From contig OZ245002.1 of NCBI GenBank assembly GCA_965223415.1, positions 608,001 through 672,000 of the forward strand: a stretch of DNA of 64,000 nucleotides, given 5' to 3'. Position 1 is the stretch's first letter. Each line of letters begins with the position of its first letter. This stretch comes from Myxococcota bacterium (GTDB lineage: Bacteria; Myxococcota_A; UBA9160; UBA6930). Position numbers: made by a program. Below are positions 61,301 through 64,000 of the stretch, piece after piece.

Positions 61301-64000
61301 CGGCCTCGCCGCCCTGGCCGAGACGGCGAACCGGGAACGCGCCGACGTGCTCGACCTGCTCGACGAGACGATCGACGCGGGCGTCGTGGAGGAGGATCCG
61401 GACGCCACCGCCGCCTTCCGCTTCAGCCACGCGCTGTTCCGGGAGGCCGCCTACGATCGGCTCCCGACGGGGAAACGCGCGCGCCTGCACCTGCGCACCG
61501 CGGAACGTCTCGAGCGACGTCACGCCGAGGATCCGGACTCCGTGATCGAGGCGCTCGCCCATCATCATCACCGCAGCCTGGCCGTCGGCGATCCGGAGCG
61601 GGCGTGGGAGTGCGCCACGGGCGCGGGTGCCCACGCGACCCAGCTGCTCGCCTGGGAGCAGGCCGCCCTCCACTACACCTGGGCGGACGAGGTGCTCGAG
61701 CACCTGGAGGAGACCGCTTCGGACCGGCGCTTCGAGACCTGGCTGCGGTTGGGAGAGGCCACCCTGGCGTCCGGGGATCGCCGCGCCCGCCACCAGATCC
61801 TGAAGCGGGCGATGGAGGTGGCGGGCCGGAACGACCGCAACGCGTTCTTCGCCCAGGCGGCGATCCTGTTCTGCGACACGTCCGAGTGGGCGATGCCCGA
61901 CCCGACCGCCGAGGCCTTCGTCGACGAGGCGCTCGAACGCCTGGGCCCGGAGCCGACCGCCGCTCGCGCCCGACTCCTCACCCGCCAGGTCTACCGCTAC
62001 GTCCGACGGAATCGGGCCAGGGCCGAGCCCCTCGCCCGGGAGGCCGCCGCCCTGGCGCGGAAGACCGGGGAGCCCCGGGCCATCCAGGAGGCGCTCTACG
62101 TGCTGTGCTTCTCAATCGCCGGCCCCGACGACCTGGAGGAGCGAGCCGCCCTCACCCGGGAGATGGTCGAGGCGGCGGCCGGCGCCGAGCTCGAGGCCGA
62201 GACCGTGATCGCGACCATCGACATCGCGAGCGACGCGATCACCCGCGGCGACGCGGAGGACGCCCGGCAGTGGCGCGCGGAGGCGGAGCGACTCAGCGGC
62301 GTCGCGCCCCCTCCCCTCCTCGGCTGGCATCTCGGCGTCTACGACACGGGCCTCGCGCTGCTCGAAGGCCGCGTGGCCGAGGTGCCCGAGCGTTCCGAGG
62401 CCGCGCTCTCGCTGGGCGTGCGCGTCGGACATCCGTACGCGAGGGGCTGCCACAACGCGCTCCTCGCCGTCCTCGCCTGGGAGCAGGGGCGCTTCGCCGA
62501 GGTCCTGGACCGCCTGCTCCCCTTCCTCGGTCAGCCGGAGGCCCCTCTCCATTGGGTGGGGGCCATGGCGGCCCGTGCAGCCTGGCGAGCGGGCCAACAG
62601 GAGCAGGCCCGCAGCCTGCTGGAGGGAGCCCTCGACGCCGGGGTCGGCGGTGTCCCCCGCGGCATCCGCTGGACCCGCTCCGTCGTCGAGCTCGCCCACG
62701 CTTTGGCGGACGTGGGCCGGGACGAACCGGCGGACGAGCTGCTCGCTCTCCTCGAGGCGCGCAACGAGCAGCACGGGGTGCTGCCGGTTCCCATCTGCTA
62801 CGGCGGACCGGTGCGCTACGCCCAGGCCCGGCTGTGCGATCGGCTCGGGCGCGCCGACGAGGCGGAGGACCACTTCGCCGACGCGCTGCGGGATGCGCGG
62901 CAGCTCGGGGCCCATCCGTTCGTCGCCCGGATCCTCGCCGACCAGGCCCGCCACCTCGAGCGCCGGGGAAGGGGCGGGGCGGCGCGCGAAGCCGAGGCGG
63001 CCGCGCAGGCCCTGTTCGACGAGCTCGGAGTCGCCCGCTTCCCGTAAGCACGCCTTCCTGGGACGTTCTGCCTCCCGGGGTGTGGCAGGGCGTCCATCCG
63101 TCCGTGCCGAAGCGCCCGGAGGCCGCTCTTCCAGCGCCGGCACGGGGCTTGCGTCCCCACGTGCTCACCCAGGGAGGGACTCGAGAGATGGCCCGACGCA
63201 ATCGTGTGCATCCCCTGAACGCCATGCGCGCCATGCGCGATCTCCGCGCCGATCCGGACGACACGGCGGCTGCGATCCGGGTGATCGCCGCCCTCGCGGG
63301 AAGCTCCGGGAAGCGGGCCTTCCGGCGCTTCCGGCGCTCCCCTCGCGGCGCCCAGATCCTCCGGGCGCAGCAGGATCTCTACGGCGTGCTCACGGACACG
63401 GAGCGATTGAAGGCGATGCCCTCCAGCTCCCTCGGACGGACGATCATCGACTGGTTCGAGCACGAGAACATCAGCACGGAAGGGCTGGCGAAGGCCAGTG
63501 TCGCCGCGCGGGGCGGCACGGACCCGGACGTCAGTGCGGACGAGCAGACCTACGGCTCGCGCATGCGCAACCTCCACGACGTGTTCCACGTCCTGACCGG
63601 ATACGATCGCGACCTGCGGGGCGAAGCGGCGGTGCTCGCCTTCACGATCGGCCAGGCCTACAACCGGGGTATCGCCTACCTCGTGTGGAACGCGATGCGC
63701 GCCGAGGGCTGGAGCTCGCCGGGCGGCCGGCTGATCCGCGACGGCTACCGGCGCGGGAGGCGCGCGGAGCGCCTGGTGGAGCAGGACTGGGAGGCCCTCT
63801 TCGAGCGACCGATCGACGAGGTGAGGGAGGAGCTGGGCGTCGGACCGCCCCCGGTCTACGAGCAGCTCCGCTCGGCCAGGGCTCCTGCACTGAGCGCCTG
63901 ACGATCCAGGCCGCGGCGGCGGGACCTGCACACGATCCGACGACCTAACGATCGATGAGATCATCCTCGTAGCGGAGGGCGCTGCGCAGGAAGAGCGCGT

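Follow-up and report, generated by a model that had tools for sequence, protein, structure and literature searches.

The COQ4 family is uncoupled from ubiquinone synthesis in the bacterial order considered here, and its paralogues in the genome under study are old lineages, not recent duplicates. We tentatively regard these proteins as ligand-regulated metalloenzymes, probably of a decarboxylase-like type, which would act on lipophilic carboxylates outside of respiratory-quinone synthesis. One of them, g00616, is encoded in the window, the stretch of 64,000 nucleotides that was analysed as a whole (contig positions 608001-672000), and is the only one of the five full-length COQ4 paralogues of the genome located there. 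The host organism is a marine myxobacterium. The gene and its surroundings comprise the following features, given in window coordinates:

60024..63047, + strand: 1007-aa regulator with an OmpR-type winged helix, an AAA_16 ATPase domain and TPR repeats (Pfam Trans_reg_C, AAA_16, TPR_12)
63167..63190, + strand: Shine-Dalgarno-like GGGAGGG, followed by the ATG start codon (sequence inspection)
63188..63901, + strand: g00616, coding for a 237-aa COQ4-family protein (P0001), all-helical and predicted to be soluble (translation, Pfam Coq4)
63575..63625, + strand: HDxxH-x11-E metal-binding motif, residues 130-146, HDVFHVLTGYDRDLRGE (regex match at residue 130)

As judged from these features and from its relatives, g00616 is a real and intact gene for a metalloprotein of the COQ4 fold. 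The product matches the Pfam Coq4 model (PF05019) with 64.0 bits against a cut-off of 22.9, the alignment covering residues 32-222 of the protein and positions 32-221 of the 221 positions of the model, and the GC content at codon position 3 amounts to 0.88. The assigned start codon is shared with orthologues, which open with the equivalent methionine (e.g., MAFRNRM...). Homologues number 283 at E<=1e-5, the nearest being 81% identical, and the close ones are named "Coq4 family protein" at NCBI; the protein atlas likewise returned Coq4 clusters only. A scan of positions 62800-64000 for promoters and terminators found nothing.

The five full-length genes reported in the initial annotation were recovered by a genome scan and a protein-level scan at contig positions 671188-671901, 687602-688294, 2812260-2813048, 2965417-2966205, and 3046295-3047023, with Pfam Coq4 scores of 59.2-66.3 bits (cut-off 22.9), while relatives from the same order reach 167 bits. 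Their products consist of 237, 230, 262, 262, and 242 aa, reproducing the range of 230-262 aa given before, and are 24.5-46.0% identical to each other in pairwise BLASTP comparisons, again in agreement with the earlier values of 25-46%. The HDxxH-x11-E motif occurs at residues 130, 126, 144, and 133 of g00616, g00631, g02784, and g02863, respectively, exactly as annotated, but g02636, which had been described as lacking it, contains the D-to-E variant HEIVH-x11-E. The family size of five holds only for the full-length genes: two more COQ4 homologues are shortened, retaining exactly the half that bears an HDxxH-x11-E motif, and bring the total to seven. The metal ligands are therefore present in all seven copies, in six of them as HDxxH-x11-E and in g02636 as HExxH-x11-E. 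Each of the five full-length paralogues belongs to a clade of its own (support at least 99/98), and because these clades are shared with other genera and the mutual identities are only 24-46%, the paralogues represent old lineages. Coq4 was detected in 143 of the 193 genomes of the order, close to the 138 of 192 counted previously, with a maximum of 10 copies per genome. In the phylum sample, it was present in 129 of 401 genomes (32%), which is lower than the share of 40% initially given, and one of 14 control genomes yielded a match. Natural fusions known in the family join Coq4 to an FMO-like or to an alpha/beta-hydrolase part.

The AlphaFold2 model of g00616 (pLDDT 94.2, pTM 0.91) aligns with PDB entry 6E12 over 197 residues (Z 20.9, rmsd 2.5 A) and with 3MSQ at Z 18.7 (TM 0.72/0.80). 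The best match outside the COQ4 fold among 48,161 chains reached only Z 3.4, and kinship with HD-domain, heme-oxygenase-like or amidohydrolase folds, none of which exceeded this value, was discarded. No solved structure of a eukaryotic COQ4 was contained among the matches of the sequence and structure searches. In an alignment of 119 diverse members of the family with a mean column identity of 28%, no substitution occurs at H130, H134, or E146, and at least 90% of the sequences retain D131. The role of this motif in binding metal is described for the structure of Alr8543 and for COQ4 mutants in the respective papers (Pelosi et al. and Nicoll et al.).

A view on the gene neighbourhoods shows a recurrent association with regulators of the TetR family, but little other conservation. 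The TetR, amidohydrolase, and B12-binding radical-SAM genes and the RND/HlyD efflux pair noted initially as neighbours of the COQ4 genes are indeed present (Pfam). Of these, the TetR link alone recurs, and the amidohydrolase, radical-SAM, and efflux genes, named initially as functional hints, are not kept at orthologous loci. When 12 neighbouring proteins of g00616 were compared with five orthologous loci, which had been collected by a single-protein search and whose COQ4 proteins are 72-76% identical to g00616, the COQ4 gene alone was matched; the neighbours of these orthologues vary from locus to locus. The neighbours of g02636, g02784, and g02863 are not conserved at their orthologous loci either, and no conservation at orthologous loci was seen for the radical-SAM, amidohydrolase/GST, or RND-efflux neighbours. 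Of 49 places of the family, 20 have a TetR gene at a distance of no more than 3 kb, as compared to 8.0% of the genes in this genome, where the count of 20 includes orthologous and non-independent loci and relies on a TetR model built from the TetR genes of those same loci. The gene g00631 is accompanied by a divergent TetR gene at a distance of 57 nt, and, among the 14 places matching best to g00631, six have a TetR gene of one and the same cluster immediately next to the COQ4 gene in divergent orientation. In the genome itself, three of the five COQ4 genes have a TetR gene within 4 kb, against 11.6%, which is a weak and post hoc comparison, and none occurs within 4 kb of g00616. The 1007-aa regulator gene is encoded on the same strand, ends 141 nt upstream of g00616, and may control the expression of the latter. 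This regulator is absent beside the five nearest orthologues of g00616, and Pfam-confirmed AAA_16 regulators adjoin COQ4 homologues at two loci (L061 and L074) and occur four genes off at another one (L068). Other recurrent neighbours code for Amidohydro_2 proteins (at 8 of 48 loci), P450 enzymes, Rieske dioxygenase subunits, FMO/BVMO and luciferase-like monooxygenases, PhyH, acyl-CoA enzymes, and MFS_2 proteins. However, since catabolic genes abound in these genomes, with 57 matches to the crotonase family and 87 or more TetR genes, such neighbours of COQ4 genes are often expected by chance.

The chemistry of COQ4 has become tractable only since 2023-24, and the identity of the metal as well as the oxidative or non-oxidative course of the reaction are still disputed. 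Pelosi et al. argue for an O2-dependent oxidative decarboxylation and report that COQ4 rescues ubiD and ubiH defects, whereas Nicoll et al. describe a Zn-dependent non-oxidative decarboxylation in vitro, with hydroxylation being carried out by COQ6. It appears rather unlikely that the paralogues are non-catalytic binders or chaperones of isoprenoids or lipids, acting as accessory proteins, scaffolds or sensors. Such a function would be consistent with the lipid carried by the solved homologue Alr8543 in a hydrophobic tunnel beside the metal site (Pelosi et al., in agreement with the PDB title), with the long-standing view of COQ4 as a scaffold in the literature, and with the variable neighbourhoods, which would suit a generic helper. 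Moreover, loss of darK, the sole COQ4-like gene of bacteria backed by genetics, lowers the antibiotic yield without abolishing it, and the authors regard DarK as auxiliary rather than catalytic (PMC13625510). However, H130, H134, and E146 are conserved strictly and D131 nearly so in a family as divergent as this one, a pattern that would be difficult to account for if the metal site had no function, and the shortened copies keep precisely the half of the protein containing that site. In addition, eukaryotic COQ4 possesses decarboxylase activity in vitro and loses its function upon mutation of the metal site (Pelosi et al.; Nicoll et al.).

It is likewise doubtful that the paralogues are metalloenzymes of another chemistry, for instance hydrolysing lipid esters or phosphates at a binuclear site or acting as dimetal oxygenases that activate O2, even if several observations point in this direction. 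The binuclear geometry resembles that of metallohydrolases accepting Fe, Zn, Mn or Co, and O2 is needed in vivo (Pelosi et al.); hydrolases and oxygenases occur among the neighbours, and the natural fusion with an alpha/beta-hydrolase would fit as well. The fold search, however, gave no indication of kinship with a hydrolase or an oxygenase, although convergent chemistry would still be compatible with this result, and in vitro work on the family has measured decarboxylation only, as far as the literature consulted shows.

The location of the COQ4 genes outside of a ubiquinone pathway is supported by the gene content of the genome. The initial finding that UbiD, UbiX, COQ7, and COQ9 are missing was borne out by profile searches, which retrieved no UbiD and no match to COQ7 or COQ9, and the sole PF02441 flavoprotein of the genome is CoaBC (429.5 bits vs. 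219.7) and not UbiX. The best matches in the genome also stay below the values required for 4-HB polyprenyltransferase (TIGR01474; 52.5 vs. 275 bits, the match being heme O synthase), UbiG (52.7 vs. a cut-off of 102.95), UbiH-type hydroxylases (112.4 vs. 224.65), and UbiE/MenG (111.2 vs. 158.35). The same pattern extends to the order, in which 4-HB prenyltransferase is found in none and UbiD in only two of the 193 genomes that were compared for Coq4, and these values, together with the presence of up to ten Coq4 copies, indicate that the COQ4 fold occurs independently of coenzyme Q. The top-scoring Coq4 genes of the order (117-167 bits) were considered as a quinone-linked subgroup, which was rejected because no quinone genes are present near the eight annotated loci.

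The designation as a menaquinone-type genome with a MenA-type prenyltransferase could not be upheld. The best MenD match in the genome scores 61.1 against a cut-off of 244.2, MqnA/D (PF02621) gave no match, MenG remains below its cut-off as mentioned above, and a MenB-like protein reaches 309.9 against 342.7 and is encoded in an acyl-CoA gene context. The supposed MenA is a 339-aa UbiA-family protein, which scores 71.8 against the MenA cut-off of 102.15, stays below every curated cut-off, and shares just 28% identity with the genuine MenA of a genome of the same genus. Its gene sits behind those for a deacetylase and a GT2 glycosyltransferase, an arrangement duplicated at a second UbiA locus. 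In the congener G152, a menG-F-D-H/B-A-C operon adjoins a block syntenic with this genome, and the operon is gone here. With neither a ubiquinone nor a menaquinone pathway recognisable, the COQ4 copies probably act on other fatty or aromatic molecules; how an aerobic bacterium manages without a recognisable quinone pathway constitutes a separate puzzle.

One answer to the latter might be that the COQ4 paralogues take part in an unrecognised, dispersed route of prenylquinone synthesis or salvage, supplying the respiratory chain after the loss of the men operon, which we regard as quite improbable. In its more specific form, this would make the COQ4 radiation responsible for decarboxylase and hydroxylase steps of a prenyl-benzoquinone pathway, in concert with the ABC1 kinases, a UbiE/COQ5-like methyltransferase and the MenA-like prenyltransferase, feeding an aerobic chain, and is to be judged highly improbable. 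Such a route would agree with the lack of MenD, MqnA/D, MenG, true MenA, UbiD, and 4-HB prenyltransferase, and with the presence of three genes for heme-copper oxidase subunit I, of heme O synthase, of class A flavin monooxygenases alongside the MenA-like UbiA protein, of a UbiE/COQ5-family methyltransferase (Pfam 97.8 bits), and of four ABC1/UbiB-type kinases, a family which in the control panel gave matches in benzoquinone-making bacteria and archaea and none in menaquinone-only bacteria. Coq4 is also encoded in 52 of 62 genomes of the order without menaquinone markers, compared to 91 of 131 with them. However, the markers are thus present in 91 of the 143 Coq4-positive genomes, and the resulting table (91/52/40/10; odds ratio 0.44) shows a weak relation that is uncorrected for kinship and for MAG incompleteness. 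Men-positive genomes (e.g., G152, G155, G159, G160, and G163) are represented in all five COQ4 clades, and on these two grounds Coq4 as a simple substitute for menaquinone was dismissed. Furthermore, none of the loci examined combines a COQ4 gene with an adjacent gene for a UbiE-like protein, an ABC1 kinase or a prenyltransferase, the context of the MenA-like gene is that of deacetylase and glycosyltransferase genes at both UbiA loci, and TetR-type control would, by general knowledge, be unusual for housekeeping quinone synthesis.

If the paralogues are instead ligand-regulated, probably decarboxylase-like metalloenzymes, as we tentatively propose, they would function as enzymes rather than as scaffolds, and their His/Asp/His/Glu site may bind a single divalent metal ion or a pair of them beside a tunnel that admits lipids, the tunnel being assumed from the cyanobacterial structures. 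Potential substrates would be lipophilic carboxylates, for instance isoprenoid acids or phenolic acids bearing alkyl or prenyl substituents, and the reaction would most likely be a decarboxylation, by analogy with eukaryotic COQ4, the product possibly being passed to a flavin monooxygenase for hydroxylation. The initial annotation had suggested oxidative decarboxylases of other aromatic acids, which the paralogues may be. Their expression would probably be set by ligand-sensing regulators, of the TetR type for many members and by the large ATPase-type regulator in the case of g00616, which fits a role in catabolism, detoxification or specialised metabolism and not in housekeeping quinone synthesis. 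Should the decarboxylase reading be true, it would bear on marine organic-matter turnover and on biocatalysis, and the lineage offers many small and predicted-soluble bacterial COQ4 homologues for enzymology and crystallography.

Among known systems, the proteins represented by g00616 share the Pfam family, the HDxxH-x11-E motif and probably the logic of a lipophilic substrate with eukaryotic COQ4. They differ from it in the lack of 4-HB prenyltransferase, COQ3/UbiG, COQ7, and COQ9 in the genome, in the number of copies (seven instead of one), and in adjoining regulators and catabolic-type genes, unlike the COQ4 of the eukaryotic CoQ pathway. The sole solved structures with the fold of g00616 are those of Alr8543 from Nostoc (6E12) and a homologue from Nostoc punctiforme (3MSQ). 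These cyanobacterial proteins come from another phylum than the host of g00616, are just 19-22% identical to it in structural alignments, and match only with the C-terminal ~100 residues in a sequence search (E ~6e-7). The Nostoc hosts make no ubiquinone. A literature search on the function or expansion of bacterial COQ4 returned only a general mention of bacterial CoQ4 homologues, a hypothesis on plant COQ4-like proteins, and darK. The last two render it too strong to call the suggested use of the COQ4 fold "not yet described," as done initially, since COQ4-like paralogues of Boraginales plants have been proposed for shikonin biosynthesis (10.1101/2021.06.30.450579) and DarK is a COQ4-like protein affecting the yield of the sesterterpene antibiotic of the darumycin cluster (PMC13625510). 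DarK is similar in being encoded by a bacterial COQ4-like gene of a non-quinone, polyprenyl-derived pathway, but is a remote relative found by HHpred alone, is assigned an auxiliary role, and belongs to a defined biosynthetic cluster, unlike the COQ4 genes described here (PMC13625510). The Boraginales proteins likewise show a radiation of divergent paralogues beside or beyond the CoQ copy, with a prenylated 4-hydroxybenzoate as hypothesised substrate; however, they are eukaryotic, are supported by co-expression alone, and coexist with a canonical COQ4 and a related prenyltransferase, neither of which is present in this genome (10.1101/2021.06.30.450579). Finally, UbiD/UbiX and the Amidohydro_2-type decarboxylases would be functional analogues of the proposed reaction as decarboxylases of aromatic acids, but are unrelated to COQ4 in fold and cofactors; should the COQ4 proteins prove to decarboxylate lipophilic aromatic or isoprenoid acids in a metal-dependent manner, they would constitute a third such family beside UbiD and the amidohydrolase type.

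The five Coq4 genes claimed in the initial annotation were all recovered at their places in a search of the host genome, a single contig of 5.83 Mb with 71% G+C (59-66 bits), and g00616 is the only one of them within the window. The window covers contig positions 608001-672000, so that position 640001 is not window position 1; the start and end fields of the annotation are correct.

Genes with coordinates discussed in the text
Window 46313-46993, minus strand: open reading frame whose 226-aa product is repetitive, rich in Ala, Asp, and Gly, and contains the unit AAGDMAGDA several times as well as a signal resembling that of lipoproteins (…LAGCGS…)
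Window 58046-58849, plus strand: membrane methyltransferase, scoring 296 with the model of methanethiol S-methyltransferase MddA (cut-off 270)
Window 58815-59972, plus strand: Rv2258c-like winged-helix methyltransferase, next after the MddA-like gene
Window 63188-63901, plus strand: g00616, translated into 237 residues
Contig 2813097-2814464, minus strand, and 2962121-2963488, plus strand (outside the window): DDE transposase of 455 aa, present twice
Contig 3345951-3349645 and 4385986-4389204 (outside the window): two UbiA-family loci, one MenA-like, one with a HAD-UbiA fusion
Contig 3540573-3541031, plus strand (outside the window): truncated COQ4-like gene, 152 aa, HDxxH-x11-E
Contig 4575664-4576224, plus strand (outside the window): truncated COQ4-like gene, 186 aa, HDxxH-x11-E

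The reading frame of g00616 has a G+C content of 0.88 at codon position 3, a Shine-Dalgarno-like GGGAGGG ahead of its ATG, and a start methionine shared with its orthologues. The protein scores 64.0 bits with Pfam Coq4 (cut-off 22.9), while no NCBIfam match was found. At E<=1e-5, 283 homologues were found, with identities of 59-81% among the 120 matches listed; some of these bear the name 'Coq4 family protein [Myxococcota bacterium]' (NCBI) or 'ubiquinone biosynthesis protein COQ4' (JGI). The records of the five orthologous loci place its lineage among marine Myxococcota MAGs. In an alignment of 119 diverse Coq4 members (mean column identity 28%), H130, H134, and E146 never vary, and at least 90% of the sequences have D131. 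The AlphaFold2 model calculated from this alignment is all-helical (pLDDT 94.2, pTM 0.91); Foldseek matched it to 6E12 (TM 0.72/0.80) and 3MSQ only, and among 48,161 representative chains these two reach Z values of 20.9 and 18.7, respectively, all others staying at or below 3.4. The membership of g00616 in the Coq4 family is thus secure by score, fold, and motif, whereas its designation as 'the CoQ C1 decarboxylase' fails on the pathway context.

As for the paralogues, g00616, g00631, g02636, g02784, and g02863 code for 237, 230, 262, 262, and 242 aa, respectively, and their pairwise identities of 24.5-46.0% agree with the range previously given. The motif HDxxH-x11-E is located at residue 130 of g00616, 126 of g00631, 144 of g02784, and 133 of g02863; its reported absence from g02636 does not hold, since this protein carries the conservative variant HEIVH-x11-E. 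A profile built from the five paralogues revealed the two truncated genes, which consist of the motif-bearing half alone and align to the family profile with hhalign probabilities of 97.9% and 96.6%; one falls just below the Pfam cut-off (21.1 vs 22.9), the other is without a match. One of them has a hydrophobic C-terminal tail, and a UbiA-family gene lies one gene off. When 41 sequences from the taxonomic family of the host were placed in a maximum-likelihood tree, each of the five paralogues grouped with genes of other genera in its own clade (support of at least 99/98), indicating that the five copies are old. The transposase copies, identical in their first 30 residues and in Pfam scores, directly adjoin g02636 in one case and lie about 2 kb from g02784 in the other, which suggests recent rearrangement at these loci.

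A view on the quinone genes shows that the description as a 'menaquinone-type genome' must be abandoned. UbiD, COQ7, COQ9, and MqnA/D gave no matches in the genome, and the only PF02441 protein is CoaBC, bearing out the claimed lack of UbiD, UbiX, COQ7, and COQ9. The best scores for MenD (61 vs 244), UbiG (53 vs 103), UbiH-type proteins (112 vs 225), and UbiE/MenG (111 vs 158) all remain below the cut-offs. The best MenB-like gene likewise falls short of its cut-off (310 vs 343) and is surrounded by acyl-CoA genes. The four UbiA-family genes comprise one for heme O synthase, two of the decaprenyl-phosphate phosphoribosyltransferase type, and one MenA-like gene, whose 339-aa product stays under every curated cut-off and is only 28% identical to the true MenA of G152, a genome of the same genus. 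G152 contains an operon menG-menF-menD-menH/menB-menA-menC, with MenC slightly under and all others over the cut-offs, adjoining a block 70-97% identical to the host genome at 3.749-3.760 Mb; no counterpart of the operon was found in the host genome, with the breakpoint near these contig positions. MenD and MenG are missing from four of the six genomes of the genus. The MenA-like gene is preceded by amine-oxidase-like, polysaccharide deacetylase, and GT2 glycosyltransferase genes, and the deacetylase/GT2 layout recurs before the HAD-UbiA fusion gene, suggesting a role in polyprenyl-phosphate sugar chemistry, not in the synthesis of quinones. The genome codes for three heme-copper oxidase subunits I, heme O synthase, and four ABC1 kinases, yet for no recognisable menaquinone or ubiquinone pathway.

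In the order, Coq4 occurs in 143 of 193 genomes (up to 10 copies), MenD over its cut-off in 122, MqnA/D in five, and the 4-hydroxybenzoate polyprenyltransferase in none; of 401 genomes sampled evenly across the phylum, 129 contain Coq4. Both Coq4 and menaquinone markers are present in 91 genomes of the order, Coq4 only in 52, the markers only in 40, and neither in 10 (odds ratio 0.44, with no correction for kinship or for incomplete MAGs). As judged from these counts, Coq4 is common in a lineage devoid of the canonical ubiquinone pathway and mostly co-exists with menaquinone. UbiD-family decarboxylases are nearly absent from the order (2/193), despite the wealth of genes for aromatic and lipid catabolism in its genomes.

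The TetR, amidohydrolase, radical-SAM, and efflux neighbours previously noted are indeed present, but, save for the TetR gene of g00631, they are not conserved in orthologous loci. A 1007-aa regulator (wHTH, AAA_16, TPR) ends 141 nt before g00616, with the MddA-like and Rv2258c-like methyltransferase genes just upstream of it; g00631 faces a divergent TetR gene 57 nt away; g02636 comes last in a closely spaced series made up of TetR, HlyD, AcrB, and one unknown gene; GST and amidohydrolase genes precede g02784; and g02863 is flanked by a B12-binding radical-SAM gene and a CBS gene. None of 12 neighbours of g00616 is shared by the five orthologous loci, which contain varying mixes of TetR, P450, Amidohydro_2, PhyH, luciferase-like, glyoxalase, acyl-CoA ligase, and hydratase genes. 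The g00631 lineage is different: in 6 of its 14 places a TetR gene of the same cluster immediately precedes the Coq4 gene in divergent orientation, frequently accompanied by Amidohydro_2. A TetR gene is found within 3 kb at 20 of 49 family places (48 loci), compared to 8.0% of the host genes with the same model, these places being non-independent and the model built from the TetR genes of those loci; in the host genome alone, TetR lies within 4 kb of three of the five paralogues (vs 11.6%). The argument from neighbours is weakened by the great abundance of genes of these kinds in the genomes; the host alone has 57 matches to the crotonase family and at least 87 to TetR. When 1.84 billion representatives were searched with the family profile, 3,753 Coq4 clusters passed E<=1e-3 and 387 passed E<=1e-30. 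Public representatives include natural fusions with an FMO-like flavin monooxygenase (P0248, 804 aa) and an alpha/beta-hydrolase (P0170, 559 aa), and a protein with two Coq4 stretches (P0133, 503 aa).

Our tentative proposal, to which we give somewhat less than an even chance, is that the paralogues are enzymes induced by ligands and convert lipophilic carboxylates, decarboxylation being the simplest reaction to assume. It combines the only activity measured for the family and the lipid-lined site of the solved homologue with the link to TetR, the neighbouring oxygenase and acyl-CoA genes, and the fusion to FMO. That the metal ligands are strictly conserved, truncated copies included, argues for catalysis; that the proteins are lipid-binding helpers appears unlikely, and enzymes with another metal chemistry seem similarly improbable. 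In view of the missing men operon, the boldest reading is a hidden quinone route, which is very doubtful: all COQ4 clades have members in men-positive relatives too, and a prenyltransferase gene adjoins none of them. At eight loci of the order's best-scoring Coq4 genes, the neighbours are of the same kind as elsewhere and no quinone genes were found.

Our literature searches, supplements aside, turned up neither an account of a COQ4 expansion in bacteria nor a defined role for the family there. CoQ4 homologues are described as widespread in proteobacteria and cyanobacteria (Degli Esposti), and possible bacterial homologues and Alr8543 are mentioned by Pelosi et al., who inferred a single O2-dependent oxidative decarboxylation from E. 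coli and Corynebacterium genetics. In vitro, Nicoll et al. report a Zn-dependent, non-oxidative decarboxylation, with C1 hydroxylated by COQ6. Alr8543, the protein of 6E12 with oleic acid and Mg, has a lipid-lined site or tunnel (Pelosi et al.), and a similar tunnel is assumed for g00616 by analogy. Uses of the family beyond coenzyme Q have been proposed for plant COQ4-like paralogues in shikonin synthesis (10.1101/2021.06.30.450579), and loss of darK, a remote COQ4-like gene of darumycin synthesis, lowers the antibiotic yield (PMC13625510).
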